Of a stretch of DNA of 64,000 nucleotides, positions 1,923 through 44,196 are shown one piece after another; within the stretch, counting starts at the first letter, position 1; every line of letters starts with the position of its first letter. The notes under the pieces are model-generated. The model made no database searches, was not told the DNA's origin, and worked only from the letters and a program-made list of their open reading frames with translations. This DNA is from a phage. The translations under genes and the position numbers were made by a program. The stretch lies in NCBI GenBank assembly GCA_026066175.1, contig GCA_026066175.1_4721.2; one strand, written 5' to 3'.

Positions 1923-2543
1923 TCACAAACGACGCAGGCGATAATGGATGGAACGATTGGTGCAATATGAACGGAACAGCGGTAATTGCGCAACTTCCGC
2001 AAGACTCATATTAATTCGCAGATGTTCGATAACCGCGCTGTAGTTATCGGCGATACGATCGCTCAGTAACTCTTCTGCCAATAAAGGAAGACAATCGACA
2101 ACGATGGCGATCACATCCTCATTAACATAACGCACCCGAACATTGAGTGGACGTTTGTCTGGGCCGTAAGTTGGATCCGCCAAACGACGTTCAATATCGC
2201 GTGGATAGCTCGTCAGTAAATGGTAATAACCATTGTCATAACGATTGATGTACTCACACAGCACATCAACATTCTTCTCTGGCGGCAAACCTGTTTCGTC
2301 ATAGTGATACGCAAACATACCACCAAGCAGGTTGTTAAGATGAACCGCAGGGTTCGCTTGTTCGTGTTCTTTCGTGATGAAGAAAGGCACGTTCTGGGCT
2401 GCGAAATAAAAACCTACATCATTGGGCGATAGTATGCCGAAAAGACTTTTAGGGTCTAATAACACCTGTAAGTCATCACGCGCATTTCGAATAATCGCGT
2501 GTTCTACCCAATTCGGAACGACGAGATATCGGAGTTCCTTCAT
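1923..2543 (-). CDS. hypothetical protein (206 aa)
   Basis: ATG start with AGAGG SD; divergent from the plus-strand gene starting at 2583. Confidence 0.65.
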   Translation of the reverse strand: MKELRYLVVPNWVEHAIIRNARDDLQVLLDPKSLFGILSPNDVGFYFAAQNVPFFITKEHEQANPAVHLNNLLGGMFAYHYDETGLPPEKNVDVLCEYINRYDNGYYHLLTSYPRDIERRLADPTYGPDKRPLNVRVRYVNEDVIAIVVDCLPLLAEELLSDRIADNYSAVIEHLRINMSLAEVAQLPLFRSYCTNRSIHYRLRRL

Positions 2544-2582
2544 TATGATTACCTCTTTGCAAGTATCGAAAGGATTGAGTCG

Positions 2583-4193
2583 ATGGACCCAAAACAGATA
2601 GCCATTAAGATTATTACGTTACTGTTTCGTAATGCACAATTGAACCATCCCGATCCCAGTACGATCGAACATGTTAAATCCGTCTTAGATAAAATCGAAC
2701 CCCCGAAAAACCATCTCACCGTTGATGTGGATAGAGAGGTTTTCAACAACCTGATGAACACCATTCATTGGATGTTGGAACAACCGTTATCGGAACCTTT
2801 CGATAAACAACAGTTGCTACAAAGGATACGTTTAGATTGCCTGGAACAAAGCCACGTTTACGAAATTCTCGCCGACGGATTGTACGATATCGAAGACGAT
2901 GCTCATATCAGTAAGGTCTGTTCGCTTTACTACAATGAATTACGTAATCTGATTACCCGTCGTCGTGTATTTGAAACCTTTAAAAACACGTACATGGATA
3001 TCAGTAACGGCCGCCTTGGGGACAAAGAATTTTTCGACGCGATGGCGAATTTGAAACTATCGCTAGATACCATCGAAATGGATACTGAAAACCCCGAAGA
3101 AATGTCCTGTATGATTGACGGCTTCATCGCTGATAGTGAAGACGATATTGAAAAAGTCGAACGTATGTTCGTTAAGGCGATGGAGCGTAACAGTCCTGAA
3201 GGGGGATTTGTCACCGGCTGGCAGGGGTTTAATAAAATGTTGGGGTCGGTCGGCGTATTACGTCGTGGTACTCTAGGATTGATTGGCGCGATGCAACACC
3301 GTAATAAATCAGGGGTGTTATTAAAACTTTTCACCCACCTGGCGTTGTACAATAAACCCCATTTCTTTTTTCCGGAGCGCGCAAAGAAAGCCTTATTGAT
3401 TCATCTCTCAACAGAGAACGAAGTTGAAGAAAACACGCTTCAAATCTACAAGAACATGCGAGAACAGGAAACAGGTGAATATGTCGATATTCGTAAGATT
3501 GACCCACGTGAAGCTTCACGCTATGTACTGAACGTTTTCAATAATGCGGGGTTCTCTGTCTGCATGCGTCGTGTTGATGGAATGAGCTATAAACAACTTG
3601 CTAACCTTATCGACCATTTTGAACGTATGGGTTATGAAGTTATGGCTTTGTTCATCGACTATCTAAAAATGTTCTCGTCAGAAGGATTAGATAGGAATGG
3701 GCCTACGGGCGCTTGGCTGCAAGAACTCTTCAACAAAGTACGTAACCTCTGTAGCGTTAAACGTATTTTAGGTATGACCGTACACCAGTTGTCTTCTGAT
3801 GCGAAGATGCGGGCACGTGATGGTAACGATGAAGAATTTGTTGACCAAGTCGCCGGTTTAAGTTACTGGGATGGATGTAAAGGGATTGACCGTGAGATTG
3901 ACCTTGAGGTAATTGTTGATATCGTTAAGGAACCTGGCAAACGTCAAAGCTGGCAGGTCTTTGCGCTAGGGAAAGACCGTCAACCGGATAACGGCTCAAC
4001 AAAACCTGAAGATAAACATTTTGCGATGCCGTTCCAAACCATCGGGATGCTTCCTGACGATTACGGTAAGAAAGCGGTGTATTGCCGCAAGGTTGGCGGA
4101 CAACCGGTCTCTGAAGGAGGCAAAGGTCCGTGGAACAAGTTTGATGAACATGCCGCACCGAGTAATGAACTACAATTTGATTTAGAATTCTAA
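2583..4193 (+). CDS. putative DnaB-like (SF4, RecA-fold) helicase homolog with deviant Walker A
   Basis: ATG at 2583 with AAAGGA SD (the listed 2499 start is GTG and would overlap the divergent gene). Motif order as in DnaB C-terminal domain: LIGAMQHRNKSG (P-loop-like, Asn in place of the conserved Gly), MALFIDYLKMF (Walker B / H2), TVHQLSSDAKMR (H3-like), GIDREIDLEVIV (H4-like). Confidence 0.6.
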   Translation: MDPKQIAIKIITLLFRNAQLNHPDPSTIEHVKSVLDKIEPPKNHLTVDVDREVFNNLMNTIHWMLEQPLSEPFDKQQLLQRIRLDCLEQSHVYEILADGLYDIEDDAHISKVCSLYYNELRNLITRRRVFETFKNTYMDISNGRLGDKEFFDAMANLKLSLDTIEMDTENPEEMSCMIDGFIADSEDDIEKVERMFVKAMERNSPEGGFVTGWQGFNKMLGSVGVLRRGTLGLIGAMQHRNKSGVLLKLFTHLALYNKPHFFFPERAKKALLIHLSTENEVEENTLQIYKNMREQETGEYVDIRKIDPREASRYVLNVFNNAGFSVCMRRVDGMSYKQLANLIDHFERMGYEVMALFIDYLKMFSSEGLDRNGPTGAWLQELFNKVRNLCSVKRILGMTVHQLSSDAKMRARDGNDEEFVDQVAGLSYWDGCKGIDREIDLEVIVDIVKEPGKRQSWQVFALGKDRQPDNGSTKPEDKHFAMPFQTIGMLPDDYGKKAVYCRKVGGQPVSEGGKGPWNKFDEHAAPSNELQFDLEF

Positions 4194-4218
4194 AACGCAA
4201 AAAAAAAATCGTACGGTT

Positions 4219-4250
4219 CCCTCCTCCAACCCGGAAGGGAAGGAGGAGGG
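4219..4250. terminator. conserved palindromic hairpin CCCTCCTCC-AACCCGGAAGGGAA-GGAGGAGGG between convergent genes
   Basis: 9-bp GC stem, internal AA/AA, CCC/GGG, GGAA loop; an A10 run at 4199-4208 gives a U-tract for the minus-strand transcript. Confidence 0.6.
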
Positions 4251-4267
4251 TTATGACCGTTATGGTG

Positions 4268-4594
4268 TTAACTTATCGTCATGAATTCCGTAGGTGAGAA
4301 TTTCCAACCGTTTTCATTGAGAAGCGTGTTAAGTTTCGCTGCAACGATAAGCCATGCGTGCATGGCTGTCACATCGTATTGGCGATTAACACGGCGTTGG
4401 TTTTCGATATCGATTTGCTCCCGTTCGGTGATGTTTGGGTAGAGCGCGACGGCGCTGGGCTTCCCTAACGCATCACTCATTACCGCCTGACATTCACTGA
4501 TGATGTTATTGAGATGATAATTGTAAACCGTTCCACGCATAACACGATGACGGCATTCAATAATAGCGTCGTAAATAATTTCTCTTGTTGTCAT
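4268..4594 (-). CDS. hypothetical protein (108 aa)
   Basis: ORF in the minus-strand block, start 6 nt after the upstream stop. Confidence 0.55.
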   Translation of the reverse strand: MTTREIIYDAIIECRHRVMRGTVYNYHLNNIISECQAVMSDALGKPSAVALYPNITEREQIDIENQRRVNRQYDVTAMHAWLIVAAKLNTLLNENGWKFSPTEFMTIS

Positions 4595-4600
4595 GATCGA

Positions 4601-5002
4601 TTAAAACACACGTTCGTTTTTAGCACGGGCATCCATAACCAAATCGTAGATACCAGCTGTTCGTAAACATTCTTCGTAATAACGGTGCGTACCTTCCTCC
4701 GCCATCCACGATAACCCACGACTATCGGCAACAATAACCAGTTTGTTATTGTTGAATGCGCATACCACACGGTAAGTCGCATTGTTGTTTGGATCACGTG
4801 TAATCAGTTCGTAAACACCATTAACCGGTTTACTGAATTCACCGTTCAGCGGAATAAGTTCCGTTGTACCTTCAGCAAACGTTACATTGATTGATGCTGG
4901 CTCTTTAGCAATGACGGTGTATTCCACGTTGTGTTCTTTACTGGTCATGATACCGAAATAAGAACTTACTGGAGAACGTGGTACACTAAGAATATTAAAC
5001 AT
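4601..5002 (-). CDS. hypothetical protein (133 aa)
   Basis: ATG start; same operon block. Confidence 0.6.
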   Translation of the reverse strand: MFNILSVPRSPVSSYFGIMTSKEHNVEYTVIAKEPASINVTFAEGTTELIPLNGEFSKPVNGVYELITRDPNNNATYRVVCAFNNNKLVIVADSRGLSWMAEEGTHRYYEECLRTAGIYDLVMDARAKNERVF

Positions 5003-5065
5003 GAATGTTGTCCTCTTAATTGGATATAGATTGTTGGTATGTATTTGAATAAGGTTGGTTTACTT

Positions 5066-5635
5066 TTAGACGATGAGCGTCCAGGTGGTCAGTACACCGC
5101 TTGCGAATTCAAGCTTAAGACGTTTACCAATAAGCTGTTGTTGGATCATCTTTTCCGTGATCCGACGATCGTGTTGAACGGCTTTATCGAATGCCTCTTT
5201 TGCTTCGGCTTGATAAAAGTTCGTTTCTTCGTTCTCGTCGATATCTTCGAATGCATCATCGTCGATATCAGCAAGTTTTACACGGCCGTTTTCATCGGGT
5301 TGTTCGGCCGGTTCGTTGTCGTAAGGCGTGTCTTTTGTCGGTGCGACACGGTGCTGTAGTTCAACCTGGGTTAGCATCACTTCCATCTCACCGTCGATAG
5401 GGATGATGTCATCAGCACTACCGTTTTCGGTTAGCTCTCGACTTTCCAGTAACGTCGTAGTAACAGTGAACACCTCCTCGACAGGAACCTCATCATCGTC
5501 GATGGTGTTAACCGTACCGCTGGTCACTTCGGCAACAACCATCAAATCGAATGCGTGAGGGTCGCCGGGCATTTTGATCCCAGGAAGTTTGTTGAGATAC
5601 CAAGGATCAAGAATCATGATTTCGGGATTAAACAT
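5066..5635 (-). CDS. hypothetical acidic protein (189 aa)
   Basis: ATG start; D/E-rich product. Confidence 0.65.
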   Translation of the reverse strand: MFNPEIMILDPWYLNKLPGIKMPGDPHAFDLMVVAEVTSGTVNTIDDDEVPVEEVFTVTTTLLESRELTENGSADDIIPIDGEMEVMLTQVELQHRVAPTKDTPYDNEPAEQPDENGRVKLADIDDDAFEDIDENEETNFYQAEAKEAFDKAVQHDRRITEKMIQQQLIGKRLKLEFASGVLTTWTLIV

Positions 5636-5710
5636 CGTATTTACCTTTTTATGTTAGGTGGGTTGCGGATGGAAGAATCAATGCATAGTCTGATTTAAGT
5701 TTGTTAAGAC

Positions 5711-6544
5711 TTACTTAGCTTTCGGATTATACGGACTAACATGTTGTTGCATTCGTTGGATTGTTTCGTAGTACGGGTTATAATGAGTGAACATATTGTT
5801 GTATGGATGGTAGCCGTAAAGCGCATTTTGCCTTGCCGGTGAGAAACCTTTTTGAGAAGGACGATTTGAATTTACTGCGAGCACGTAGTAAACCAAATTT
5901 TGATGGTCGAATGTTCCTTCGTTTTTGAAGGTGTCAGCATAGGCGCTTACCGCAGGAGCAAGTCTATCACCATCGGTTGTAATGATCGTACCATCCGGGT
6001 AAACTTCTCGAACGATACACCATGTTCCGATGAGAACATCTTCGGGTGTCTTATTACTGTATCCGACTGTAACGGTAAGGTAAGTATCGAATCCTCCTGA
6101 GCGCTGCGGATGTCGATAAATTGGGCCAGTCGTTTCTGCTTTATCGGTTACGGTTTTTTCGTAAGGACACTTCTTGATTGCTTTGATGTAAATATCGGGA
6201 ATCTCTAATACCGCCTTATCAGGATGAATTCTAAAATGATTCTTGAGTAAGCCCAAAAGGTTGGTTGCTACCACGTCGTGAGGTAGTACCCAATAACTGG
6301 TAGGGGAGTCATCGCCGTCTCTCTTGGAGAAGATGACTGCCTTGTTATCGTCGTCTGGTAGACTGAAGAAAACGATTGACTCAATAGGCATAGCCAGCTC
6401 ACCACAACAGGGGTCAGCGGATAACACCCAATTGTATTTGTTGTCCGTTTCGTATAAATGTTCTGTTCTGTCGATACTACGATCCTTCAATTGGATGTAG
6501 CGTTCACGTTGTTTCTTGGTTAATTTACGGTAGATAGTGGTCAT
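5711..6544 (-). CDS. hypothetical protein, paralog family of 5711/6630/7431 genes (277 aa)
   Basis: N-terminus MTTIYRKL; shares VREVYPDGTIITT and PIYRHP...YLTVT segments with the 6630 gene product. Confidence 0.75.
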   Translation of the reverse strand: MTTIYRKLTKKQRERYIQLKDRSIDRTEHLYETDNKYNWVLSADPCCGELAMPIESIVFFSLPDDDNKAVIFSKRDGDDSPTSYWVLPHDVVATNLLGLLKNHFRIHPDKAVLEIPDIYIKAIKKCPYEKTVTDKAETTGPIYRHPQRSGGFDTYLTVTVGYSNKTPEDVLIGTWCIVREVYPDGTIITTDGDRLAPAVSAYADTFKNEGTFDHQNLVYYVLAVNSNRPSQKGFSPARQNALYGYHPYNNMFTHYNPYYETIQRMQQHVSPYNPKAK

Positions 6545-6588
6545 GTTAAGCTCCTTGATTACGGTAAGGATGATTTCGGTTTTGTGAT

Positions 6589-6617
6589 GATGGTAGGACC
6601 ACTTTGTTTAGGATCCT
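6589..6617 (-). terminator. imperfect hairpin GGTAGGACC...GGATCCTACC between paralog genes
   Basis: 7-9 bp stem in the intergenic gap. Confidence 0.3.
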
Positions 6618-6629
6618 ACCAGTACGGGA

Positions 6630-7403
6630 TTATTCATGATCAGTGTAGAAATGGTGAGGATAGCCGGAGTACGATCCTGCGTTACCGGCTATGGATTCTT
6701 TCTGGGAATCGACGACGAGCGCGTAGAACTGTCGGGAATTTGTTAACGTTGAGAAATAAGAGGAAAGGACTTTTTCGTTCAACGCATCGCACGGTAGACA
6801 GGTACGCCCACAGAACGTCGTAATACGGCCATCCGGATAGATCTCACGGATCATACGCCATTCACCGATATCAACCGGCGATGGCGCTGCTACACCACCT
6901 GTTATCGTTAAATAACGATCATACGTGGTATGACATTCTGGATGTACGTAAATTGGCTTATTGGCCTCAACTTCTTCAGGAGCATAGCGTCGACCGAGAA
7001 GTTCAATAACCTCCAGATAGATTGTAGGCAGATCGCAAAGAACCCCTTCCTCTTTACGTTTCTTCGTGATTCGAGGACGAACCTCATTGATAACGTAGGC
7101 GAGTTCATTCAGCGCTTCTTGCGCTGGTAGCACGAATAAACGGTCCGGTTTGTCGGACAAGTCTTCATTTACGTAAACGTAACAAACATCGTCTTTAGGC
7201 GCGTAGAAGAAGCGAGAGACCTTAAAGGTTTCCGTAGTACGATAACCGAGACGCGTTTGGTCCTGCACCAGAGAAAATATCCAGCGACGTCCTTCGTCCT
7301 GTTCAATGATATCATTGAACATCTTTGTTTGATCAGGAAGTTGATATTCTTCCTGTAATTTAGCAAGTGCTTCATTATCCAGTTTGGTGTAAACATCAGT
7401 CAT
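6630..7403 (-). CDS. hypothetical protein, paralog of 5711 gene product (257 aa)
   Basis: N-terminus MTDVYTKL; IREIYPDGRITT and PIYVHPECHTTYDRYLTITGG align to the paralog; Cys cluster CGRTCLPC. Confidence 0.75.
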   Translation of the reverse strand: MTDVYTKLDNEALAKLQEEYQLPDQTKMFNDIIEQDEGRRWIFSLVQDQTRLGYRTTETFKVSRFFYAPKDDVCYVYVNEDLSDKPDRLFVLPAQEALNELAYVINEVRPRITKKRKEEGVLCDLPTIYLEVIELLGRRYAPEEVEANKPIYVHPECHTTYDRYLTITGGVAAPSPVDIGEWRMIREIYPDGRITTFCGRTCLPCDALNEKVLSSYFSTLTNSRQFYALVVDSQKESIAGNAGSYSGYPHHFYTDHE

Positions 7404-7430
7404 GATAGTATCCTCGATTAGTAAGGTTGG

Positions 7431-7835
7431 CTAGTCTATCTTAAGCCAGATTGATGGTAAATGGAAATAGACACCGTCGTCTATTTGTTTTTGTGTTAAC
7501 GGGGTTGGAAGTTTAGTGATGATGTTGTCGATCGATTCCTCAATGTCACTTGTTAGAACGTCGATGTGGTAATAGCGAGCGATGCGTCCGTTACGTTCTA
7601 GCCAAAACAGACGAACGAAATCACTATTTTTATTAATCGCATTCATAAACACGATTTGATGAAGCAGGATCATTCTTGACGAGGGGTAATCGTCAGGACG
7701 CGGAGTCATCACCAGTTCCCAACGTTTCCGTCGCACGCCTTTTTTGAATTGACTCGTTACATTTGAACCACTTTTACCTAAGTTTATAACAAATTGCTTT
7801 AGACGATACGGTGTGTTTCTGTAAATATCGGTCAT
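7431..7835 (-). CDS. hypothetical protein, short member of the same family (134 aa)
   Basis: N-terminus MTDIYRNT; first gene after the TATATTAC repeat. Confidence 0.65.
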   Translation of the reverse strand: MTDIYRNTPYRLKQFVINLGKSGSNVTSQFKKGVRRKRWELVMTPRPDDYPSSRMILLHQIVFMNAINKNSDFVRLFWLERNGRIARYYHIDVLTSDIEESIDNIITKLPTPLTQKQIDDGVYFHLPSIWLKID

Positions 7836-7854
7836 TGATTATAGCTCCAGGTTA

Positions 7855-7886
7855 TTATCACTAAGGTAATATAGTCGTGAAATAAA
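7855..7886 (-). promoter_or_regulatory. 32-nt promoter-like repeat; minus strand reads TTTATTTCACGACTATATTACCTTAGTGATAA
   Basis: Identical 32-mer recurs at 48100-48131; contains TATATTAC; lies 20-50 nt upstream of the 7835 start. Confidence 0.45.
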
Positions 7887-7919
7887 CTGGAGTAATAGAA
7901 ATAATAAGACGGCATAAGA

Positions 7920-7950
7920 CCCTCTCCCAACCCGGAAGGGAAGGGAGAGG
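7920..7950 (-). terminator. conserved palindromic hairpin, variant CCCTCTCCC...GGGAGAGG
   Basis: Same architecture as 4219-4250 with compensatory stem changes; follows the stop of the 7956 gene. Confidence 0.55.
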
Positions 7951-7955
7951 AAGTA

Positions 7956-9323
7956 TTAAACGGTTGGACGAACGGTGTTGTCTTTTTCCGGTGCAAGCCA
8001 GAGTGTGACGGTACCGTGGCAGGTCCATTGGGGTTCACGTACAGAAGAACCCGCCATCGTAACAGCGCAATCGGTACGCATAACAACGCCGTAAGCTTCG
8101 CAAAGGTTATTGTCTTGCATCCAAACAACTTTAGCAGGCATGCCAGGATACAGTAAATCCATGTTGGCATGTTCCCATACCAACTGCATCGTTCGACCGC
8201 GTAACCCAGCAGTATTACTTAATTCCCGCCAACGGTTATCCGTTACCCGGCCCATCCCTTTTGCTACCTTCACGTTATCACTACGTTCTTCCGTCACATA
8301 CTCGCTTACGTTCACGGTACGACTGATGATCGTATCACCGCCCTTCGATAACGTCATTCCCTGGCTCATCTGACTCGCTGAAACAAAGCGTCCACCCGCA
8401 TTACCTAACAATGAAGCTGCGTTGCTGATATCGCTGACCGACGCACCTCGTGTACACGCGATCTCCACGTATTTGTCACGATTGATCCAGGTATTTTCCA
8501 TGCCGGGAAACATATCGGCCGGATAATTGTAAAAAATCGCCGTACGTCGACCGTCGGAGAAACGGGTTTCGTCATACAGAGGGTAGATATACAAATACGG
8601 TGATTGGTAATAGCAACCAACGTCCGCTGAATAAATACCGACCTGGTTCTGGATCTTATCAACAAGATCCATCGCGTTGGTACCATGAGGAAGAATCAAT
8701 AACTTGAACAAATCATTGTTATTCGGTGCGACAATATCAACACCCTGCATTTTGAAGCCGGTATCCGCTTCAACAGCAGAAAGGATTTTACTGAATTCGA
8801 GTCGCAGTACATCCAGAACTTTCGATCCAGTATAGTTCTCACCGGTTTCTGACTGCATGAAGCTTTCAAGAACAGGATCGAACAACTGGAATTGAAGATC
8901 GACCATCTGCTCGTAATCTTTCTTCGCAGAATCGGTTGCAGTACGTTCATCGGTTGCGGACATACGACTGTCTACGGTGGTTAAACAAACTGCCCGATAG
9001 ACATAAGCTTGTGCGGCATCGTCTACGGTTTGGCGTTGTCCACGCATCAGACTGTACGCCTGCACGATGACGCGCATTTTAAGTTGTTGCTGGTACGGTA
9101 AAATGTATTTTCCGTAACTGCCCGGAGGGAACTTTACAGAGATATAAAGTTCATCTCCTGCGTTACGTTCATAGTCTCGATACGTGTGGACTTGAGTCAC
9201 TAAAGGAACAGACACCGTCATTGACGGCGTGATTAATTCCGCGGTGACTTTATACGCAACAGCAACTGCTTCCTGCGCAAATGTACCGATATACCGTCCT
9301 AACGGCGTCTGTTTGTAATCCAT
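7956..9323 (-). CDS. hypothetical protein (455 aa), possibly virion-associated
   Basis: Long ORF, ATG start. Confidence 0.8.
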   Translation of the reverse strand: MDYKQTPLGRYIGTFAQEAVAVAYKVTAELITPSMTVSVPLVTQVHTYRDYERNAGDELYISVKFPPGSYGKYILPYQQQLKMRVIVQAYSLMRGQRQTVDDAAQAYVYRAVCLTTVDSRMSATDERTATDSAKKDYEQMVDLQFQLFDPVLESFMQSETGENYTGSKVLDVLRLEFSKILSAVEADTGFKMQGVDIVAPNNNDLFKLLILPHGTNAMDLVDKIQNQVGIYSADVGCYYQSPYLYIYPLYDETRFSDGRRTAIFYNYPADMFPGMENTWINRDKYVEIACTRGASVSDISNAASLLGNAGGRFVSASQMSQGMTLSKGGDTIISRTVNVSEYVTEERSDNVKVAKGMGRVTDNRWRELSNTAGLRGRTMQLVWEHANMDLLYPGMPAKVVWMQDNNLCEAYGVVMRTDCAVTMAGSSVREPQWTCHGTVTLWLAPEKDNTVRPTV

Positions 9324-13260: not shown

Positions 13261-16200
13261 TTACTTGTAGGCACCGCAATGGGCTTTGATGAGGAAAAGC
13301 ACCGCTTGCATCGGTTTATTGAACTGTTGCCATAACGTTAATGCCGGATGGAACAGCCAATCTTCCAGGCCGAGAACAATACCGTAGTTAACGACATTAT
13401 TAACATCGTTCTCAACGTTGAGTTCGCTATCCAGGAATTTATCGATTGAACGCAGGGTCTGCATGGCGTTGTCAGCAATAAGCCAAGCTTCATGCGCTTC
13501 ACGAGCCGCACGCAGCACTGCCTCCAGTTCGCTGATAGTAGCTACCGGTAATTCCTCACTGGTGAGGTCGTCAGAAACCGTAAACTGGCGATTGATACCG
13601 GTGTAGATCCACTGCATCAGTTTCGCTGCTTCCTCGTTCGGGTTGTTACGCGTTGTCGCATAGGTCGCGCTCATCTTCACGATATGCGTTTCACCAAGAT
13701 ACGCTTTGGACCCAACGCCTTTACGATCGCTGTCTTTCCACGGTTGTACGGTAGCGACCATGAGCTTATCCCATTTCTGAATAGGAATACGCTTCAGACC
13801 AACAACCGATCCGGCCGATGTTTCGGACTGGTTGCTCTTCCGCACTTCGCTGAGCTCGCGATCGATAGCAACGATTAATTCACGCGTCATGTTACCAAGC
13901 ATTTTGATTTCACCCAACGCAGCGATGAGCTTCTTCACATCGGTAATAGGTTCACCACCGATGGTAAGATGACGGATGAAACGTTTCAGAATAATCCGTT
14001 CTGCTGCTGGGTTACCACGACGCGCTTTAGCCAACGCTTGCTGTGTTTCGGCGAACAGCTTATCCCATGGAGCCGTAGCGGCGGTATAGTAACGGTGGTT
14101 GGTTTCAATCCAGTTACCGATACGGTTGACCGCACTCTTAACGGTATCCATGAACCCTTCCATCGCAATTTCGGTGGCTTCGACGTTACCCTGGAAGTTA
14201 TCAGGACCGATCTCACGCGCCGCCACCAGAATACCTTCCACCGCACTCACCGCATGCCGACCGATAGCCAGATTTCGCTGCGCTTCTTCAGCACGCTCAA
14301 CGAATTCTACAACCGCAGGATCGTCAACGATTTCCGCCTCAGCAACAACACGAGTACCAGCATCGCCTTCCAGTGTCTCGATGGTGACAACCGGATCGTT
14401 TTCACCAGCAACATCCTGGTACTCTTCCTGTTTGAGATCGCCGTTATCAGCCGCTGCGACAGCGGTGAGTATACGGACGGTAACATCACCGAGTTCTTTC
14501 GCAGCGAATCCGTAGACGGTACATGCTGTTGTCGCAAAGTTCATCAGTGTGCGCGTGCGTTTAACGATGTAACCAACATCGTAATCGTTGCCGCTCTTAT
14601 CGATGTCGCGGATTAACCGTTCAGCTGTCTCCTGAAGCTGTGTAGCTGCTTTCAGAAGGTCTTCGTTAAACAGTTTCGTTGACGCATCGATCAGCATATC
14701 AACACTAACGTTAGACGGTACGGCATCATCCTGCTGTTTCATGGCGCTAAGTTCGTCACGGAACTTACGAATACCGTCTAAAGCGGCGTCGGCGCTATGT
14801 CCGAACGCGGCCACGCCAGACATTGTTGTTGCTGTCAGCATGTCCGTATCAGCGTTTGGACTTTCGCCTTCTTTAAGATCCTTCAGCTGGTCGAAGAACT
14901 TACGGGATGCTTCAGCGATACGTTTGCTGTCTTTGACTGCGTTTACGATTTTATCAACCGATTTAGCATCGTTCGCAAGCAGCGTATCGAGTTTGTTCCA
15001 TTCGACGTTGACTTTCTTTTCATCCGAAGTATTACTCGGCGGAGGAAGCAGTTTCATCACCGGTGCTGTGCGTTGTTCTTTGGTCAGCTTGTTGGCCTTC
15101 CCTTCGATTTTTTTCTTATTAACACCAAAGAGATTTTTCAAACGCGCCACGAGGGCTTTTAAGAACTTCGCGACCGCTTCGTAAACCGATTTCAGAATCT
15201 GTTTAAAGCGACCCGGCTGCTTTTCCCCGTCTTCCAGATTAAGATCGCTGTTCAGCGCGACATCAAGCTGTTTGTACGATTCCATGATGTATTCGTCTTT
15301 GATTTCAGGACGAATCTCGAAGCTTTCCATCGGACCTTCAGCCGGACGGAATTCCATTTTCAGTTCGCCTTGCAGAGTAGGGTCGACAATGGCGATCGCT
15401 TCACCCTGACCATCAGCGTTAAAGCGTTCAGCGTAACGAGTACGGCGAACAATAACACTCTTATCCCCATCAAGACGACGTACCACCATGGTGCCAGGAA
15501 TGTATGGTTGTTCTGTTTCAATGACGGTTACATCTGCCTCACCTTCGCCGAGAATAACCGATGCACGCTGTTCAACAACAGGAACATCTAATACGCCACG
15601 TGCTTCCAGCTCTTGATGAATTTCGAACGACTCTTGTTTCAGATCTTCATCTTCTTCGTTTTCGTCTTCATCACCGTCACCTTTGGTGTCTTCATTACCC
15701 TCGGTGGTTTTGGTGTCGGTAGCATCAGCGTCGGCGTCTGTGTTGGTAGGTTCTTCGGACGCGGGTTCGGTGGTGCTATCCTCGGTGGACGTTTCGTCGG
15801 CGTTATCGACGTCAACATCACCTTGCAGCTCCGTTTCTTGAGCAACGGCGTCGGCTTTCTGCTCACCAGTATTGCCGTCATTAGCGTCGACAACAGGTTG
15901 TTCGTCAGCGACGGTATCTTCAACCTTTTCTACTTTCTCCACAACACGTTTAATCACGGTGACTTTGATGGGTTCTTCCGTCGTTTTGGTTTCTGGCGTC
16001 GCCTCGGCTACCTCAGCTGCTGTTTCAGCAACAGGTTCTGCTTTTTCCGGTTCGACGACATTGCCTTTAACACCTTCGGTGGTTTCTGCAGGTTGCGTCG
16101 CCTGTTCGATTTGTGCCGGATTGGTTGGATCGATGGCGTTAGCCGCATCCTGAATCTTGTTCTTCAGGTTGTCACGGTCAGCGTTAACGGTCGGATCATT

Positions 16201-16644
16201 GGTCACTTTCGGTGCCGGTGTTTCGGTCGGTGCGTTTGCTGGATATGGGTTCTTCGGCTCTTCACCAGGTGCGGTCGGTACGGCGATCAGCACGAACGGC
16301 TGCACGTCGTTACCGTCTTCCATGGTAACGCCACCGTTGCTCGGTGTGAAACGAATTCGTAAACTACCATCGATAGGACGGGTCACAATAACAGCACGTA
16401 CGACATCCTCGCCGTTCTCATCCGTGCTACGAATTACGCGAACGGCATCATCAACAGTAGCCCCTTCCTCGAGCGTATCTGATTCGATCGTCGCTTCGAT
16501 GCTGTCTGGCCGTGCCGCTGTAGGTAATGCGATCACCTGCTCTTCTTTATCAGTAGAAAGCGTTGCTTTGACTTCGATCGGTGTATCGCCGCTTTCCAGG
16601 TTAAGATGCGACTTACGCATCAAATCAGCTAACGATTTTTTCAT
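13261..16644 (-). CDS. large protein (1127 aa) with about 200-aa acidic low-complexity linker
   Basis: ATG start; central E/D/T/A-rich segment (product residues about 140-340); globular flanks. Confidence 0.85.
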   Translation of the reverse strand: MKKSLADLMRKSHLNLESGDTPIEVKATLSTDKEEQVIALPTAARPDSIEATIESDTLEEGATVDDAVRVIRSTDENGEDVVRAVIVTRPIDGSLRIRFTPSNGGVTMEDGNDVQPFVLIAVPTAPGEEPKNPYPANAPTETPAPKVTNDPTVNADRDNLKNKIQDAANAIDPTNPAQIEQATQPAETTEGVKGNVVEPEKAEPVAETAAEVAEATPETKTTEEPIKVTVIKRVVEKVEKVEDTVADEQPVVDANDGNTGEQKADAVAQETELQGDVDVDNADETSTEDSTTEPASEEPTNTDADADATDTKTTEGNEDTKGDGDEDENEEDEDLKQESFEIHQELEARGVLDVPVVEQRASVILGEGEADVTVIETEQPYIPGTMVVRRLDGDKSVIVRRTRYAERFNADGQGEAIAIVDPTLQGELKMEFRPAEGPMESFEIRPEIKDEYIMESYKQLDVALNSDLNLEDGEKQPGRFKQILKSVYEAVAKFLKALVARLKNLFGVNKKKIEGKANKLTKEQRTAPVMKLLPPPSNTSDEKKVNVEWNKLDTLLANDAKSVDKIVNAVKDSKRIAEASRKFFDQLKDLKEGESPNADTDMLTATTMSGVAAFGHSADAALDGIRKFRDELSAMKQQDDAVPSNVSVDMLIDASTKLFNEDLLKAATQLQETAERLIRDIDKSGNDYDVGYIVKRTRTLMNFATTACTVYGFAAKELGDVTVRILTAVAAADNGDLKQEEYQDVAGENDPVVTIETLEGDAGTRVVAEAEIVDDPAVVEFVERAEEAQRNLAIGRHAVSAVEGILVAAREIGPDNFQGNVEATEIAMEGFMDTVKSAVNRIGNWIETNHRYYTAATAPWDKLFAETQQALAKARRGNPAAERIILKRFIRHLTIGGEPITDVKKLIAALGEIKMLGNMTRELIVAIDRELSEVRKSNQSETSAGSVVGLKRIPIQKWDKLMVATVQPWKDSDRKGVGSKAYLGETHIVKMSATYATTRNNPNEEAAKLMQWIYTGINRQFTVSDDLTSEELPVATISELEAVLRAAREAHEAWLIADNAMQTLRSIDKFLDSELNVENDVNNVVNYGIVLGLEDWLFHPALTLWQQFNKPMQAVLFLIKAHCGAYK

Positions 16645-16659
16645 AAAACGTTGTTCCTC

Positions 16660-17763
16660 TTAAAAGTAATATTTCAGCGCCTCGCGAGAGACGTCAAGCA
16701 TAGCCGCCGTTGAGTTCGTGAAGAACTCGGCATAGCCCACAAGCGGCACCTTGATCCACGCGGTATACGCTGTAAGGTATCGAGAAAGGGCTACCATAGC
16801 ATCATCAGAAGCTGTAATGGATAACTGACCTTGTTGACGATACACATCGTTCAGTTTTGCTTGCAGGTTCCCTGCGATCTCAAGTAATTCGTTGGCGTAC
16901 TTTTTACGATGGTACGTAATAAGCAGATCAACACCGGTATTTACCGATTCGAGTAAAACGCCAATCTGCTCCAACGACGGCATGGTTACAACCATATCAC
17001 GCTCAACAGACACGACGTCCTGAACTTCAAATCGTGCTGATTGAATCGCGAGAGATTGTTGGATTGCTCCAGAACCCGTTGCGGTAACCTGATCAAGTCG
17101 TAGCATCCGGTTACCTAACAACGTCGTGTTAACCAGCCGCGATTCATTCAACGCACTGTACACCTTGTTCAACAGCGTGTGTGCATCACGATTAATCACA
17201 TCGATTAATGCGGTATCCGTCTGTTTTAAGATGATGTCAAGCGCTCTGTCTAACGTGTTTGCGAACTGTTTGAAGTCATCACGGAACGACGTTGACAACA
17301 GGTATTCTGCGATCTTCAGGTTTTGTTTGTATAACGTGTTTCCGGTGGTGAAGTCGAACCCGAAACTGTTTCCATAACGCAAATGTGGTGCGAGCGTGGG
17401 TGAGGCTTCAAAACTTTGCGCGATGGGTTTATGTCCAACCGCTTTCGTGTATTGACGACGGATATTACTCAGCTCGATTTGCAACGCACGACTGCGGTCG
17501 ATATACCGTGCGATGAAAGCAGTGATATTCCGCAACGTTGTCCAAATCGCATCGATGATCGCTTTGATGATTTTCATCGCAAGCTGGTTGTATGATTCCA
17601 GGGTAAGGAGATCAGCGCTTTCTGTAGCATAACCGGTTGCCAGAGCGCCGCCCGCTTGCTGATAAATAAGCTGATGGATTTGTCGTTGTGTTGCCGTCTC
17701 AGGTAGAGGTAAGGTTTTTAACAAGCTTAAGGCTTGGATTTGTCCATCATTGGTCTGCAGCAT
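16660..17763 (-). CDS. hypothetical protein, member of 5-gene paralog family (about 368 aa)
   Basis: Listed start 17826 is GTG; ATG at 17763 has a GAGGAA SD. Family-like helical segment with conserved Trp (AIIDAIWTTLRNI). Confidence 0.7.
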   Translation of the reverse strand: MLQTNDGQIQALSLLKTLPLPETATQRQIHQLIYQQAGGALATGYATESADLLTLESYNQLAMKIIKAIIDAIWTTLRNITAFIARYIDRSRALQIELSNIRRQYTKAVGHKPIAQSFEASPTLAPHLRYGNSFGFDFTTGNTLYKQNLKIAEYLLSTSFRDDFKQFANTLDRALDIILKQTDTALIDVINRDAHTLLNKVYSALNESRLVNTTLLGNRMLRLDQVTATGSGAIQQSLAIQSARFEVQDVVSVERDMVVTMPSLEQIGVLLESVNTGVDLLITYHRKKYANELLEIAGNLQAKLNDVYRQQGQLSITASDDAMVALSRYLTAYTAWIKVPLVGYAEFFTNSTAAMLDVSREALKYYF

Positions 17764-19128: not shown

Positions 19129-19162
19129 AAGTCAAAAGATAACCGGATATTAACGGCATATA

Positions 19163-19194
19163 CCCTCCTCCTTCCCTTCCGGGTTGGAGGAGGG
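19163..19194 (-). terminator. conserved palindromic hairpin (inverted orientation)
   Basis: CCCTCCTCCTTCCCTTCCGGGTTGGAGGAGGG, between the 19202 stop and the 19048 start. Confidence 0.55.
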
Positions 19195-19201
19195 ATTTAG
19201 C

Positions 19202-20494
19202 TTATTTTGCTTTCTCGGTTACCGCGTTGAAGTATTTCGCTGCAGCAAATACCGCCTCCGCATACTGACGGACAGAGGCACGGAGGATCTTGGTTCCTAA
19301 TACCGAGCTTAAACGAGCCATTTCTGTTACAGCCGCGATATAAGGACGTACGGTTTCACGATCGGCCTCAGGTAACTTGTCGAGCATTTCGCCCCACTTC
19401 GTTTTGATTTTCATTCCGTTGAGTTTAGCATCTCGTCCTACAGTGCTTGCCAAACTTTCAACTTTATGCAAATATGTCGGCTCCACCCTATGGAATGCCT
19501 TCAGATATGCCGTCAATGCGCTTTTCAGCTCATTCCCATCGTGGAAAATATTCACATTTTCGATATTATCTGTTACGGTGTCAACAACTTCGATATGAAC
19601 ATCCTTCACCAAAGCACATGCTTTAATGACATCTTTCTCTTTTTCTAACGCATCCAGCCCTTTAACGACATATTGTTTTCCGCCGCTTTCTGGAAGTCTG
19701 AACGCTCTCAGCGCAGCTTTAGTGGTCTGAAGATACTTATCTAGAACACTATCGAGCGTTGTTAAATCAGTTAGGACATTGATGTCGTAGTTGATGTCAC
19801 CGATCATAGTAAATAGGAAATCTGACGTCGCCGCACTTGCAGCTAATTGTTCGATATGTTTGCTAACGGATGTTGCATTAACCGATTTTGCGTTCGGGAA
19901 CATATTAACCATATTCCCGGTAGGCTTCTCTAGCTGCTTGATCTGACGTTCCCCTTTATTGACTTCGGATGCGATTTTGGTGATCTCAGCATAAGCCAGA
20001 ACGAGATTCTTGAAAAGCGTCTGGAGCAACTTAAACAATTGTTCAGCAATATTCGCGATGGTGACCCAGACCGCATACAGTGCTTGCGCTGCACGTTCCT
20101 TGAAGCCTTCCAGCACGATAGCTTGGCCTTCGACTAACTTATCATTAGCCTGGAACATGTCTTCATCAGACATACCCAGGTTAGCTGCCGATGTTGATGC
20201 GATTTGGCGGATAAGCGCAACGTCGCTGGCGCGGGCTTCTGTGATCGTTGATGCGATTACGTAGGCGGTATCTTCCAACGTTGCTGATGTCCGTACAGCG
20301 ATTTCAGCCAGTTCGCTGTTCTCGTCGATGCTGTCGTCGGTATGTCGAATCACCAACTCAACTTCATCTTCCTCAATTTCTGCGTTGGGGTCTTGTTGCT
20401 CGGGTGAAATCGATGCAAGAACATCTTCAGCGCTGAGTAGTGCGAGTTCAAAAGCGTTTTTATTGATGTTATCAAAAAGAGAAATACGGGCCAT
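19202..20494 (-). CDS. hypothetical protein, paralog family (430 aa)
   Basis: SDVALIRQIASTSAANLGM and VEGQAIVLEGFKERAAQALYAVW align with the 20504 gene product. Confidence 0.8.
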   Translation of the reverse strand: MARISLFDNINKNAFELALLSAEDVLASISPEQQDPNAEIEEDEVELVIRHTDDSIDENSELAEIAVRTSATLEDTAYVIASTITEARASDVALIRQIASTSAANLGMSDEDMFQANDKLVEGQAIVLEGFKERAAQALYAVWVTIANIAEQLFKLLQTLFKNLVLAYAEITKIASEVNKGERQIKQLEKPTGNMVNMFPNAKSVNATSVSKHIEQLAASAATSDFLFTMIGDINYDINVLTDLTTLDSVLDKYLQTTKAALRAFRLPESGGKQYVVKGLDALEKEKDVIKACALVKDVHIEVVDTVTDNIENVNIFHDGNELKSALTAYLKAFHRVEPTYLHKVESLASTVGRDAKLNGMKIKTKWGEMLDKLPEADRETVRPYIAAVTEMARLSSVLGTKILRASVRQYAEAVFAAAKYFNAVTEKAK

Positions 20495-21823: not shown

Positions 21824-21871
21824 GTGATGTCTCCAGTAATAATTCAAAAGATAAATCAGCGCAGCATAAGA

Positions 21872-21903
21872 CCCTCTCCCAACCCGGAAGGGAAGGGAGA
21901 GGG
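21872..21903 (-). terminator. conserved palindromic hairpin, variant CCCTCTCCC...GGGAGAGGG
   Basis: Between the 21926 stop and the 21823 start; preceded by GCATAAG as at 7913. Confidence 0.55.
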
Positions 21904-21925
21904 AATATGTCAGTTTACTAACTGA

Positions 21926-30132: not shown

Positions 30133-30152
30133 AACAAATAGCGCAAACATAA

Positions 30153-30184
30153 CCCTCCTCCAACCCGTAAGGGAAGGAGGAGGG
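30153..30184. terminator. conserved palindromic hairpin with GTAA loop between convergent genes
   Basis: CCCTCCTCCAACCCGTAAGGGAAGGAGGAGGG; flanked by ACATAA and AATATGCTGTTAT exactly as at 54842-54873. Confidence 0.6.
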
Positions 30185-30193
30185 AATATGCTG

Positions 30194-33100
30194 TTATCTT
30201 ACGTTATTGCTATTCTGCTGTTCACTGAACCAACCATAGACTTTGAGATCGGTACCGTATCTCAGTGCAAGGTATGCGTTCATCGCAGCACAGAACAACG
30301 TCGCGTAGTGCCATAAGAGCTCAACATCCATGTCATCGGGAGTCTTGGTAAAACCAGCACCTGGTACAAAGCGTGACGGTTCATGCATGAACGTGCGGTA
30401 CCAGTCGTGCTGTTGTTGTTTCGTCGTGAAATCACGGTGTGGTTCTAACGCTTCTCTTGCAAGACGACGATACTCGAGAAGATGGTGATTAGCCCGATTA
30501 TTGCGAGGGTAACTGACTTCGTAGTTAGGATCGACAGCTTGGCATAGCGCTGTTGAGTCTAATAACTCGATGGCTTTGACTAACTTATCGCTCGCGTTGG
30601 TGATGAGCGCCGATCTGTAATACTCGATCGAATTAGCAAGTTGCGAATAGAAGTCATCTAAGGCATCTGGATTTGATACCTGCAGATCAAGACCTAATGT
30701 CCACGGATAGCTGCTTTCATCATTGAGTTGCGGTACGACACCCAGGAGATGTTGGCAGATAGCTGCGTGATTATTGAACTGATCGTGGAAAATAGCTCGT
30801 GCAACTTCAATCGCATGATGATAACTCAAACGCCGTTCCTGACGTGTCGTCCTAAATGAGTTAACGGCGAGCAGTCCCGCGGTAGCCGCGCAAACATCAG
30901 TGTCGTTGACGTTGTTAAGCACATAGTTACTAAGCTGGAAAGATTCTTGCTTCAACGTTCCATTGGTCGCCGTTGCTTCGCTATTCGCTTTATCAACGAT
31001 GGTGCTTAGCGCGTTAATATAACGTTTAGCGCGAACTTCCAACCACTGTGCGATCCCAAGCACATCCACAGCCGCTTTAGCAAGGTCACGTGCGTTCACG
31101 ATTTCGTTCTTCAATGCACCCAGCCCTTTATTTTCAGGTGAGGAGGCTTGTTGTCGAATCATGCTGTTCAACATGGTAAGCAGGTTATCCAGCTCGTGTC
31201 CGCTGACCTTGTTACGTGCGTCAGTAATCGGCCCTTGCAGGAATTTACGACAACCGTCATTATACCGAATCAGTTTATCCACGTCGATGGATTCGTTCGC
31301 GGTTTCCTTGAACTGATTCTTTAATTCTTCACGGTAGTCGTGTATCTCGCTTGTAAGATTATCAACGGTGATACCATTGTGACCAAGAAGAACTTTACTG
31401 AAGTTGCCCTTCTCGAACGCCAGTGCGATGCCTTCACGAATCTTAGCCAGCTTATCCTGATCTAACTCACGACCGTTTGACAGTTCTTTCACTTCAGCGC
31501 TGATTATTGCTGCAACTGTTCCAAGGTTATCGGTAACCCCTTTGAACGTGCTTGACCAAACACTTCCCGCTTCAGCGTATTTTGCGATGGTCTGGATACC
31601 GACGCTATGTAGCGACGCTAAACGTTTCTTCGTACCTTCGGTAAGCAATGCATCTTTAGCTCGCGTAAGTTGACTGTTATTGGCTTCCGCTTGCTGGATG
31701 GCCGCTTTCGCATTCCCGTTACGCCAGCTCTTAACCAACCAATCGACTAAACGTTTCAGGATATTGATGGTATATTCCATCGTACGTCGTAACGTTTCCC
31801 ACGCGCTTTCAGCGGTATAGATCCCACCAACAGTGTACCCTTCCATCTTCAGCGCTTTGGTATCGGTTTGACGTGCCAACCATTCTACCGTCGCAGAACA
31901 AACGTTTACGAACGCCTCCAGGTAGTTGTAATAGGCCTCTGTTGCGGAGGTTTCGTTGAGCTTGGAATGCAGATAAAACTGTTCGTATAGCTCGTCGTCA
32001 TCACCGAAGGCGTCGTAGTTCCACAGTTCGGTATCGCAGCCGGTACCACAGAAGACATCCGCCGTTGTAAACTCCTTAAGTGCTTTCGTTGCGTCGTTGG
32101 TCAGGAATTTACCTGTCTCAAGTACGTCGTCAACATTAAGTCTCGGGAGTTCGTCAGTAATTGGGTTTTCCAGCATCAACGTATTGAAGAACACGCTGTA
32201 CTTGTATCCAAGCCATTTTGGATAACTGTTTTCAGATATCGTAGACGCCGGTTTGATTTTCTTGGCTTCAGCCAACGTGTCTTCTGCAACCTGATATTGG
32301 TTTTCCCCAGCTTTGATACGTCGTAATGCTTTTTCTTCCAACTGTTTGAGTTTGGTGTGCCGTGCTTGAGCTGGAGCCTCAACCAGTTTTTGTACCGACC
32401 GCATGGCGGAAATCGCTTCTTTCAATGTGGTGATCGGCATACGAACTTTACCGTCATCGAAACTCAGCGCGCGAGCAATACGTCGACTTACAACAGGTTC
32501 GGTATGGATGTTTCTTTCTACCCACGATTTGTTTGCGTAGGTTTGCGTGATTTGCTGCTGGATCTTTTCAAGATAGCCCCAGCTTTTGGATGCTTTGCCG
32601 TCCAAAAGCGGATTAGGTCCTTTCTTATCAAAAAGCTTTTTGATAGGATCAAAGAAACCTTCTTGCACGAGATCGATACGGGTGTAACCATCAGCTGCTT
32701 CGATTTCTTCTTGGGTTTTATCCCAGAAGTCGTCGCTCTTTGCAGCAACCGCTGTATCTTTAATGTCCAGGATGATCTGACCCACCGTTTGCGCAAACAG
32801 CAAGGCCGCACGTACCGATTGTGCGAACATCCGCTGATATTTGATTCGAACGCATTGCATCTGGGTTAGCAGATTCAGTTGCGCGATCCCATCCAAGGTG
32901 CTATCTTGAGCAAGTCCTTCAGCCTTAGCGATAACCTGTTTTACACGTTCAGCGACATCAACGTATTGCTGGCATACATCCCGCAGAATACGTGCTGCGA
33001 AGACCCCGGTACCGATATAGTTCAACAGGTCTTTTAATGACCATTCAGACGGACAATCGGCTGGTGCGGTAGGGAGTAAGCAACCATCACCGTCCATGAA

Positions 33101-40117: not shown

Positions 40118-40210
40118 CCTTCGTTCTGTAAAAGTTTACCGATGTATGGAAATTTCTGTGAGATACCAAAGGTACTCGATAAGTTTAGGAATTTCTGGAC
40201 GGAGGTAATT

Positions 40211-41347
40211 ATGTTGGAACATCTTGAGTGTTTGGACAATGAATACTTAAATTTCACCAATCGTCGTTATCGTATCTTCGAGGACGGTACCCTCTACGAT
40301 TATAAAGAGAATCGCAAAGTACCCGTCATCATCGAAGACAACAACTCTTACGTTATCATTGACTGGTATCGTGGAGTGGGTAAATACGAGCTGGGAATGA
40401 TCATACTTACGGCATTTGATCGAATCCATATCCCTAACTATCTCTACGACGAAATCGAATCTTTGTTTATTGACAACGATCCGACGAATTTCTCGTATAG
40501 TAACCACATCTATCGTTTCCGTAACGGTCCGTTAGCGGTGGAAGGGTATCCGGGGTACTACTACATCCCGTTTGCCACGTACTATGCGTTAAATGAACAA
40601 GGTGAATGTTTAAGTCTCTTGTCGGGGGAAGGTATAACGTGGACAATGACGCCACAGAACGGCACACGACGTCCAGGCTATCGATACAGAAAAGTAACAC
40701 CCGATAGTGGGTTCACAGCCCAACTGTATCGTCATCGTGCGTTGATGTTAACGTTCCGTCGTTATGATGCGAGCGTTGTAGAAATGACCGTTAATCACAA
40801 GAACGGGATTAAAGGCGATGATTGGCTGGATAACCTTGAATGGGCAACCTACAAGGAAAACAACAATCATGCGCGTATCAACGGCTTATGCGACGGTAAA
40901 GCAAAACCCGTTAAGATCTTTGATTACGTTCGTCACACCGAGCGTCAATTCAAAAGCATCGCTGAAGCAGAACGCGCTTATCCACACGTTGCAAAAGGAC
41001 GTTTCAAATGGTGGGTTGAGAATCCGCCGAAACGCATTCCAGAATGCAACCTGTACATTAAACATGCGTTCGATAACACCCCATGGCCAGAATGGAAACT
41101 GGGTGACGATCGTCGTATTGAGGATGTATCAGGTATTCCTATCATTGCACTGAACATGGTAACCGGCGAGAAACGAGTGTATCCGTCGGTTACTGCTGCA
41201 GGTAAAGATACGAAAACAAGTTGGATAACCGTAAGACGTCATTGCGATAGGCGTGTTGTTCCTGCGAAACAAGCCTGGTGCTTCCGTTATGTTGATGATG
41301 TCAAGAATATGCCGGAGTTAACCTCCCCACCAACAATCGAACAGTAA
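40211..41347 (+). mobile_element. HNH homing endonuclease ORF (379 aa from ATG 40211)
   Basis: GGAGGT SD 7 nt upstream; HNH core LYRHRALMLTF...VNHKNGIKGDDWLDNLEWATYKENNNHA (nt about 40763-40886). Confidence 0.8.
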
Positions 41348-42634: not shown

Positions 42635-42687
42635 TTTTTTTTACTCCTGATTTATGTGTCGATTGATTGACGTATTAATTTATGTTT

Positions 42688-42706
42688 GAAGGTGCTGTTC
42701 ACCTTC
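42688..42706 (-). terminator. hairpin GAAGGTG-CTGTT-CACCTTC
   Basis: Directly after the stop of the 42708 gene; near-identical 24-mer also at 18872-18895. Confidence 0.4.
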
Positions 42707-42707
42707 G

Positions 42708-43139: not shown

Positions 43140-43153
43140 CGTTGATGCTCCTT

Positions 43154-43663: not shown

Positions 43664-43667
43664 CTCT

Positions 43668-44120: not shown

Positions 44121-44150
44121 TGTTTCTTTTCCTGTTATAGTCGGTATACA

Positions 44151-44184: not shown

Positions 44185-44196
44185 TATGTTACGTTG

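Follow-up and report, generated by a model that had tools for sequence, protein, structure and literature searches.

Two places in a 64,000-nucleotide stretch of phage DNA (GenBank assembly GCA_026066175.1, contig GCA_026066175.1_4721.2; the whole stretch is called the window here) carry the same 32-nt element ahead of a cluster of small genes, which raises the question of whether the element is a promoter and, if so, which RNA polymerase (RNAP) reads it. We consider it very probable that both copies are early promoters read by the virion RNA polymerase (vRNAP) of a chimallivirus, or nucleus-forming jumbo phage, that resembles Goslar. The kind is already known from phiKZ-type phages; these two members are new.

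The 32-mer, TTTATTTCACGACTATATTACCTTAGTGATAA, occurred exactly twice in the window, on the minus strand at 7855–7886 (site 1) and 48100–48131 (site 2), as the initial annotation had reported. No third copy was found in the window at three or fewer mismatches, and none appeared in 100 shuffles. Identity between the copies extended to 35 nt with one mismatch (repeat family D12). The statement that each copy stands shortly upstream of the first gene of its cluster also held, the distance from the 3′ end of the 32-mer to the start codon being 19 nt (ATG at 7835) and 60 nt (ATG at 48039). The element reads TTT-CACGAC-TATATTAC-CTTAGT-G. Its 8-mer core, TATATTAC, to which the initial annotation had drawn attention, was present inside both repeats, but the 8-mer by itself was not enriched in the 64 kb (2 observed vs 1.75 expected). 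Because this count is at chance level, the signal lies in the extended repeat and its context rather than in the 8-mer.

The window DNA was 81–92% identical to that of Escherichia phage Goslar, and no other DNA-level match was found among the phage records of the searched collection. Goslar, a nucleus-forming member of the Chimalliviridae, is a jumbo phage with a nuclear-shell protein, the tubulin PhuZ and two multisubunit RNA polymerases, and five vRNAP subunits (gp78, gp196, gp205, gp207 and gp210) have been detected in its virions by mass spectrometry. The window product of 49500–50801 was identical to gp78 at 427 of 433 residues (99%), which supplies the multisubunit phage polymerase gene that the promoter proposal called for elsewhere in the genome. 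The other four subunits lie outside the window.

The initial annotation had given the core as the early-promoter consensus of phiKZ-like jumbo phages, and this proved correct. We took the phiKZ consensus from the oligonucleotide list of a phiKZ transposon study (Table S1 of PMC12676376) and then checked it on the phiKZ genome. The list gives the "consensus early promoter" as tatattaaaaaaaatttaagatgTATATTACaaatgtg, with the layout ...TTTAAGATG-TATATTAC-AAATG-TG. In the first 50 kb of phiKZ, TATATTAC was found seven times, always intergenic and on the coding strand, with one copy 80 nt upstream of the nuclear-shell gene PHIKZ054. The phiKZ consensus and the window element agree in the core TATATTAC, in a TG five nucleotides after it (N5-TG) and in an upstream TTT at equal spacing. 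According to reviews and primary papers, the early starts of every jumbo phage that encodes an RNAP are preceded by an AT-rich motif, ~10 nt long and with its centre near −10, which is read by the injected vRNAP. The early promoters of phiKZ also carry a T-rich element upstream of −19, and the early consensus of phage AR9 is AAATATATATTAT-(6N)-G(+1), also given as ...TATTAT-(6N)-G(+1). A literature search on the bare 8-mer returned only noise. No paper in the literature searched describes an early-promoter consensus for the Goslar lineage, and promoters are unmentioned in Armbruster et al.

The full Goslar genome was searched with TA[TC]ATTAC, a position weight matrix (PWM) was built from the resulting sites, and Markov shuffles served as the control. 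Thirteen Goslar sites scored at least 18 bits, against 0.1 in the shuffles; the matrix is circular for its 13 source sites, but flanking conservation played no part in finding them. These sites share the extended motif TTTCACGnCTAYATTACYTnnnTGA, and all are intergenic and on the minus strand, which is the coding strand of the genes downstream (gp004, gp021, gp040, gp047, gp075, gp105, gp159, gp175, gp182, gp246, gp225, gp214 and gp200). A weak fourteenth site lies upstream of gp165, a subunit of the non-virion RNA polymerase (nvRNAP). Recurrence of the motif upstream of other early genes, on which the proposal depended, was thus seen at 13 strong sites, including that of chimallin (gp246). Scored with this matrix, the window repeats reached 40.9 bits each, at the top of the family, while the rest of the window stayed at or below 10 bits.

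The Goslar span equivalent to the window held exactly two sites, the orthologues of the window's pair: 49716–49743 upstream of gp047 (site 1) and 86689–86716 upstream of gp075 (site 2; 31/32 identical). At both, the Goslar core is TACATTAC instead of TATATTAC; core position 3 is therefore Y, being C in 6 of the 13 Goslar sites. The promoter was kept at orthologous sites in four genomes, though the flanking genes differ. Conservation reached further at chimallin. The Goslar protein is only ~23% identical to those of other chimalliviruses, and TATATTAC-N5-TG stands upstream of the gene in six phages: Eowyn (a Klebsiella phage), RAY (Erwinia), RSL2 (Ralstonia), Proteus phage 10, phiKZ and Goslar. 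The corresponding site is TATATCAC in PhiPA3 and divergent in LucasX. The chimallin promoter context is very alike in Goslar and phiKZ (TGAAAAAAATTTCAGGGTTATATTACCTAGGTGAAT vs TGAAAAAAATTTGAGATTTATATTACTAAATTGAAT), and the CTTAG-TGA arrangement and the upstream TTT were invariant in a seven-sequence alignment. Such strong conservation of the element beside divergent chimallin genes fits the recognition site of a conserved enzyme.

Expression of the Goslar orthologues was taken from the per-gene RNA-seq data of Armbruster et al., who compared chimallin (ChmA) knock-down cells with control cells. The knock-down arrests infection at the early vesicle stage, and the arrested transcriptome matches that of a 5-min infection (Armbruster et al.). 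The readout is dependence on nucleus formation at 30 min, expressed as the log2 fold change of knock-down versus control (log2FC). Values were bimodal, with early genes near +1 and nucleus-dependent genes at −3 to −8. The gene downstream of each of the 13 sites had a mean log2FC of +0.53 to +1.26; on the far side of the sites, 9 of 13 genes were at −3.2 or below. All early-expressed Goslar gene blocks start at a motif site. At the site 1 orthologue, values changed from −3.24 (gp048) to +0.95 (gp047), followed by +1.12 (gp046), +1.14 (gp045) and +1.19 (gp044). At the site 2 orthologue they changed from −5.18 (gp076) to +1.10 (gp075), and gp075 to gp070 stayed at about +1.0 to +1.3. Sites within long early regions stepped up expression as well (gp106, +0.12, to gp105, +1.02; gp176, −0.48, to gp175, +0.92). 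The initial annotation had proposed that both small-gene clusters are early, and these results agree with it: the Goslar orthologues are expressed at the vesicle stage, when only the vRNAP is at work, and the genes upstream of the hairpins that precede the repeats are not.

Several points weigh against this interpretation. The expression data come from orthologous sites in a relative that is 81–92% identical, not from this genome, and they gauge nucleus dependence at 30 min rather than polymerase identity. The transcription starts are predictions in this phage and, at single-base resolution, in Goslar. Three genes of the first block (5711–7835) have no Goslar counterpart, and their early class is assigned from position. 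A canonical terminator follows the first gene of the second block (47572–47591); it is evidently leaky or attenuating, because the Goslar genes gp074 to gp070 downstream remain at about +1. Finally, gp183 and gp236 (L006, about 16088–16924 and 30244–30564) jump to about +1.0, from +0.3 in each of the upstream genes gp184 and gp235, without a recognised motif. The motif model may be incomplete; further, more divergent early promoters may exist in Goslar.

We infer, by analogy, that the G of TGA is the first transcribed base (minus-strand positions 7859 and 48104; the corresponding Goslar positions are 49718 and 86691, with 172964 for chmA), because the phiKZ consensus ends in TATATTAC-N6-G, the AR9 core is followed by (6N)-G(+1), and this G was invariant across all aligned sites. 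The only statement found on a Goslar transcription start, a figure legend for chmA in Armbruster et al., puts the first displayed base 91 nt upstream of the ATG and does not place +1. The predicted site 2 transcript begins with a stem-loop, GATAAG-N10-CTTATC (48083–48104; −7.1 kcal/mol, z −2.1). A stem-loop with its 5′ arm beginning precisely at the predicted +1 was also present at 7 of the 13 Goslar sites (upstream of gp246, gp182, gp175, gp105, gp075, gp047 and gp021) and at phiKZ gp054, and was missing at window site 1 and most phiKZ sites. It was dropped as a defining promoter feature because only 7 of 13 Goslar sites have it and window site 1 does not. It may protect the 5′ end of the transcript.

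In the proposed mechanism, the multisubunit vRNAP would enter the cell together with the injected DNA, recognise TTTCACGAC-TATATTAC-CTTAG-TGA with the AT-rich core at about −14 to −7, and initiate at the G of TGA. That the vRNAP is the enzyme binding the element in this phage is likewise inferred. Early transcription would precede the formation of the phage nucleus, take place within the early-infection vesicle and need no host sigma factors. Each promoter, directly behind the probable terminator hairpin of a late structural operon, would drive a block of small, fast-evolving ORFan genes (7835 to 4268 and 48039 to about 42149).

The hairpins themselves were examined together with the promoters. 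Both repeats lie 30–35 nt downstream of a strong GC-rich hairpin (−24.4 kcal/mol, z −3.5, and −46.9 kcal/mol, z −6.3; no shuffle folded equally well), so the reported placement just downstream of a conserved hairpin was upheld. These hairpins belong to a window family of eight copies (4212–4263, 7913–7964, 19156–19207, 21865–21916, 30146–30197, 48161–48219, 54835–54886 and 59956–60005) of the form CCCTCYYCC..loop..GGRRGAGGG, usually followed by YTATGCYGT, at operon ends and convergent junctions. The tail of the upstream hairpins, YTATGCYGT, has no T-run, and a terminator scan did not call them; at the orthologous points upstream of gp047 and gp075, the family hairpins are without terminator annotation in Goslar. 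Because the stop codon of the late gene stands immediately before it, the upstream hairpin is best read as the probable terminator of that late operon and not as a promoter component. Indirect functional support comes from Goslar, where the expression class switches across the hairpins; across the orthologue of 4212–4263, for instance, gp043 is late (about −4.9) and gp044 early (+1.2).

Two other roles for the hairpins were considered and rejected. As an obligatory promoter part, in the style of the N4 hairpins, they fail because a strong upstream hairpin was present at no more than about 5 Goslar sites in a count that covered the first 11 of the 13. The TATG behind the hairpins was considered as a phiKZ-type late promoter (T-3ATG+1) and discarded, since at convergent junctions (30146–30197 and 54835–54886) this tail is found on both strands and base-pairs so as to lengthen the stem.

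Hairpin and promoter together form a ~110-nt module (hairpin, YTATGCYGT, spacer, promoter) that is common to both sites in three genomes, and it could be asked whether this unit is primarily a recombination cassette, with promoter activity secondary. A precedent exists in the PeSL (promoter-early stem-loop) cassettes of T4-type phages (Arbiol et al. 2010, PMC2839356), and several observations resemble a homology patch of this type. Window–Goslar homology at site 1 ends exactly at the 3′ end of the 32-mer (7855), and the gene cargo around site 1 is different in each of four related genomes. With two loci and four genomes compared, breakpoints coincided with the module in all four genomes at site 1 and in a single genome at site 2. 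The two window promoters are identical to each other at 32/32 positions, compared with 28/32 between Goslar's two. The hairpin at site 2 of UViG_3300011560 is of the type found at site 1 of the same genome, and an old +1 remnant, ACCTAGGTGATAAGAGCAAG, lies ~55 nt downstream of the new promoter. We nevertheless judge this explanation very improbable. The core precedes conserved genes without cassette variation, as with chimallin in six phages from different genera, five of them outside Goslar; most Goslar sites lack a hairpin; and each gene block has a single module, in contrast to T4 hyperplastic regions, where cassettes separate the individual ORFans. The 32-mer also has few variable positions, so that constraint alone could give the identity. 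Moreover, a cassette role would be added to promoter function and would be no alternative to it.

In such an additional role, which we regard as possible but rather doubtful, the ~110-nt unit might serve as a portable homology patch, the vRNAP-era counterpart of PeSL, with ectopic recombination homogenising promoters and swapping or inserting early ORFans behind them. If so, both sites would be entry points for new accessory genes, possibly for host takeover or anti-defence, in Goslar-like jumbo phages. At the site-2 orthologue of UViG_3300011560 (L009 4285–4480), ~55–60 nt with two hairpins are inserted right after the promoter TGA, followed by a partial +1 copy (ACCTAGGTGATAAGAGCAAG). Together with the site-1-type hairpin upstream, this looks like a scar of recombination between promoter modules.

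It is more improbable still that the repeats are host sigma-70 promoters, with TATATT or TATTAC as the −10 element, from which host RNAP transcribes the small genes. TATATT is similar to TATAAT, and a simple scan gave 9/12 matches overlapping each repeat; however, at these identical repeats the matches fell in different registers (TTCACG-16-GATAAT at site 1, ATAACA-16-TATATT at site 2), and match counts were at shuffle expectation (4 vs 2.2, 2 vs 2.1 and 14 vs 14.4). ATTAC and the TGA six nucleotides downstream are invariant, C takes the place of the essential last T, and no conserved −35 element lies at 16–18 nt, TTTCACG being only 2 nt from the core. In addition, phages that infect Pseudomonas, Ralstonia, Erwinia, Klebsiella and Proteus have kept the same core, and phiKZ-type transcription is independent of host RNAP.

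The least credible alternative, that the sites are middle or late promoters of the nvRNAP, can draw on the fact that nvRNAP subunits are early products and hence present in ChmA knock-down cells, but the sites do not resemble the middle promoters of phiKZ, which have TACT and an A-tract at about −22, or its late promoters, which have TATG at +1, and the genes downstream of the motif are fully expressed under pre-nucleus arrest, as in a 5-min infection, when structural genes collapse.

Table 1. Coordinates of the probable early promoters, neighbouring hairpins and genes in the window.
Feature	Position	Strand	Remarks
Probable early promoter, site 1	7855–7886	−	Exact repeat; T-tract/TTTCACGAC upstream, core TATATTAC, TGA; PWM 40.9
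Core of site 1, predicted −14 to −7	7866–7873	−	TATATTAC, same as phiKZ consensus core
Predicted +1 of site 1 (G of TGA)	7859	−	24-nt 5′ untranslated region; from phiKZ/AR9 analogy
Probable early promoter, site 2	48100–48131	−	Exact 32-mer repeat; PWM 40.9
Core of site 2	48111–48118	−	TATATTAC
Predicted +1 of site 2	48104	−	65-nt 5′ untranslated region; as for site 1
Hairpin after stop codon of 7956–9323	7919–7954	−	−24.4 kcal/mol, z −3.5; repeat families D1–D3; probable late-operon terminator
Long hairpin after stop codon of 48226–48642	48161–48219	−	−46.9 kcal/mol, z −6.3; probable terminator
Hairpin between convergent 2499–4193 (+) and 4268–4594 (−)	4212–4263	.	Repeat families D1/D2; probable bidirectional terminator, ends operon 1
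Intrinsic-terminator-like hairpin with T7 run after first gene of block 2	47572–47591	−	Orthologous terminator annotated in Goslar
Early operon 1, six genes	4268–7835	−	Goslar block gp047 to gp044, about +1.0 to +1.2
Operon 1 genes absent from Goslar	7431–7835, 6630–7403, 5711–6544	−	
Operon 1 genes with Goslar orthologues	5066–5635, 4601–5002, 4268–4594	−	gp046, gp045 and gp044, respectively
Late virion-type gene upstream of site 1, 455 aa	7956–9323	−	gp048 orthologue, 97.6% aa identity; gp048 log2FC −3.2
First early gene of block 2, 141 aa, ORFan	47614–48039	−	gp075 orthologue, 76% aa identity
Rest of early block 2, ten small ORFan genes	42149–47518	−	Goslar gp074 to gp070 early
Late gene upstream of site 2	48226–48642	−	Hairpin follows its stop codon
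vRNAP subunit, Goslar gp78 orthologue	49500–50801	−	427/433 identical; itself a late gene (Goslar log2FC −4.9)

Protein identity to Goslar separated the genes on the two sides of the promoters, late genes being 97–99% identical and early-block genes 65–95% identical or absent. Three of the six genes in block 1 have no Goslar homologue. The same applies to four of the 11 genes compared in block 2 (the 141-aa gene and the ten that follow it as far as 42149), and the homologue of a fifth is distant. Ten early-block proteins had no match in Pfam or PHROGs, and the 134-aa and 257-aa proteins had no tblastn match among 50,697 phage genomes. Rfam at gathering thresholds gave no match in the window. 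The initial annotation described the clusters as small paralogous genes. Paralogy was found within each cluster, clearly in cluster 1 (5711–6544 vs 6630–7403, 277 and 257 aa; E = 4e-20, 29.5% identity) and as weak matches (E ~1e-4) in the 42.7–46.9 kb cluster, but the first genes of the two clusters (134 vs 141 aa) had no detectable mutual similarity and are not paralogues of each other.

A 2.2-kb segment (5636–7854) with the 134-, 257- and 277-aa genes stands in place of Goslar gp047. All three proteins begin with MT.[IV]Y, and a homologue of the 257-aa protein lies directly behind the promoter in the related contig UViG_3300045988_173921 (L019). Goslar gp047 is annotated as a 62-aa open reading frame (L001 5871–6059; record 49584–49772) that runs from an ATG in the hairpin tail CTTATGC through the promoter. 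A start at ~49718 would leave the last 25 gp047 codons transcribed, with an internal ATG that has a good GAGGA ribosome-binding site. Because this predicted start lies inside the annotated frame, gp047 is probably mis-annotated and really a 25-aa peptide.

The window promoters share with the phiKZ early promoters the core TATATTAC, N5-TG, the T-tract distance, the intergenic coding-strand placement at the head of early operons including that of the shell gene, and the kind of polymerase (vRNAP). They differ in the upstream element, TTTATTTCACGAC in the window versus AAAAAAAATTTAAGATG in phiKZ, although some other Goslar sites keep the A-tract form. In the Goslar-like family, core position 3 also accepts C (6/13 sites). 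A phiKZ genome has 28–32 sites, whereas Goslar has 13–14, and the starts of its lineage are predicted. The early promoters of the Bacillus jumbo phage AR9 likewise combine an AT-rich −10-type element, six bases and a G start, and are served by an injected multisubunit RNAP that needs no new protein synthesis. However, AR9 is not a chimallivirus, has uracil-containing DNA and a core ending in T rather than C, and lacks TTTCACG. The PeSL of T4-type phages (PMC2839356) also join a terminator stem-loop to an early promoter in a repeated unit that edges hypervariable ORFan regions, in which insertions and replacements distinguish close relatives. In contrast to the present case, they use host sigma-70 RNAP, form mini-circles and are present in many copies per hyperplastic region; the window has a single unit per block and a phage-encoded polymerase, and recombination between its units is putative. 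Sigma-70 extended −10 promoters resemble the window family in an AT-rich, hexamer-like core ~10 nt upstream of the start, but the family has an invariant C for the final T, no −35 element and other conserved flanks.

The Goslar lineage is the Escherichia coli model for nucleus-forming phages, and its early consensus can now be given as TTTCACGnCTAYATTACYTnnnTGA, with ~13 sites per genome. With this consensus, the early genes of related genomes and of metagenomic contigs can be predicted without data other than sequence. It also makes available a compact promoter for driving genes inside the early-infection vesicle, a use to which the phiKZ consensus promoter has already been put. The two window blocks are marked as early accessory genes and are candidates for a part in host takeover or anti-defence. 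How jumbo-phage transcription is understood at present is not altered by the result. The general principle already appears in a review.

Two further features of the window were observed away from the promoters. A NUMOD1/HNH-type endonuclease gene at 40142–41347 (plus strand), the gp069 orthologue, was 70% identical to its Goslar counterpart at the amino-acid level, compared with 97% for the adjacent DNA polymerase gene, a contrast that fits a mobile homing-endonuclease gene. A 124-nt direct repeat with 75% identity (58508–58631 and 59270–59393) lies inside the adjacent minus-strand open reading frames 58501–59142 and 59152–60012, which suggests a tandem gene duplication.

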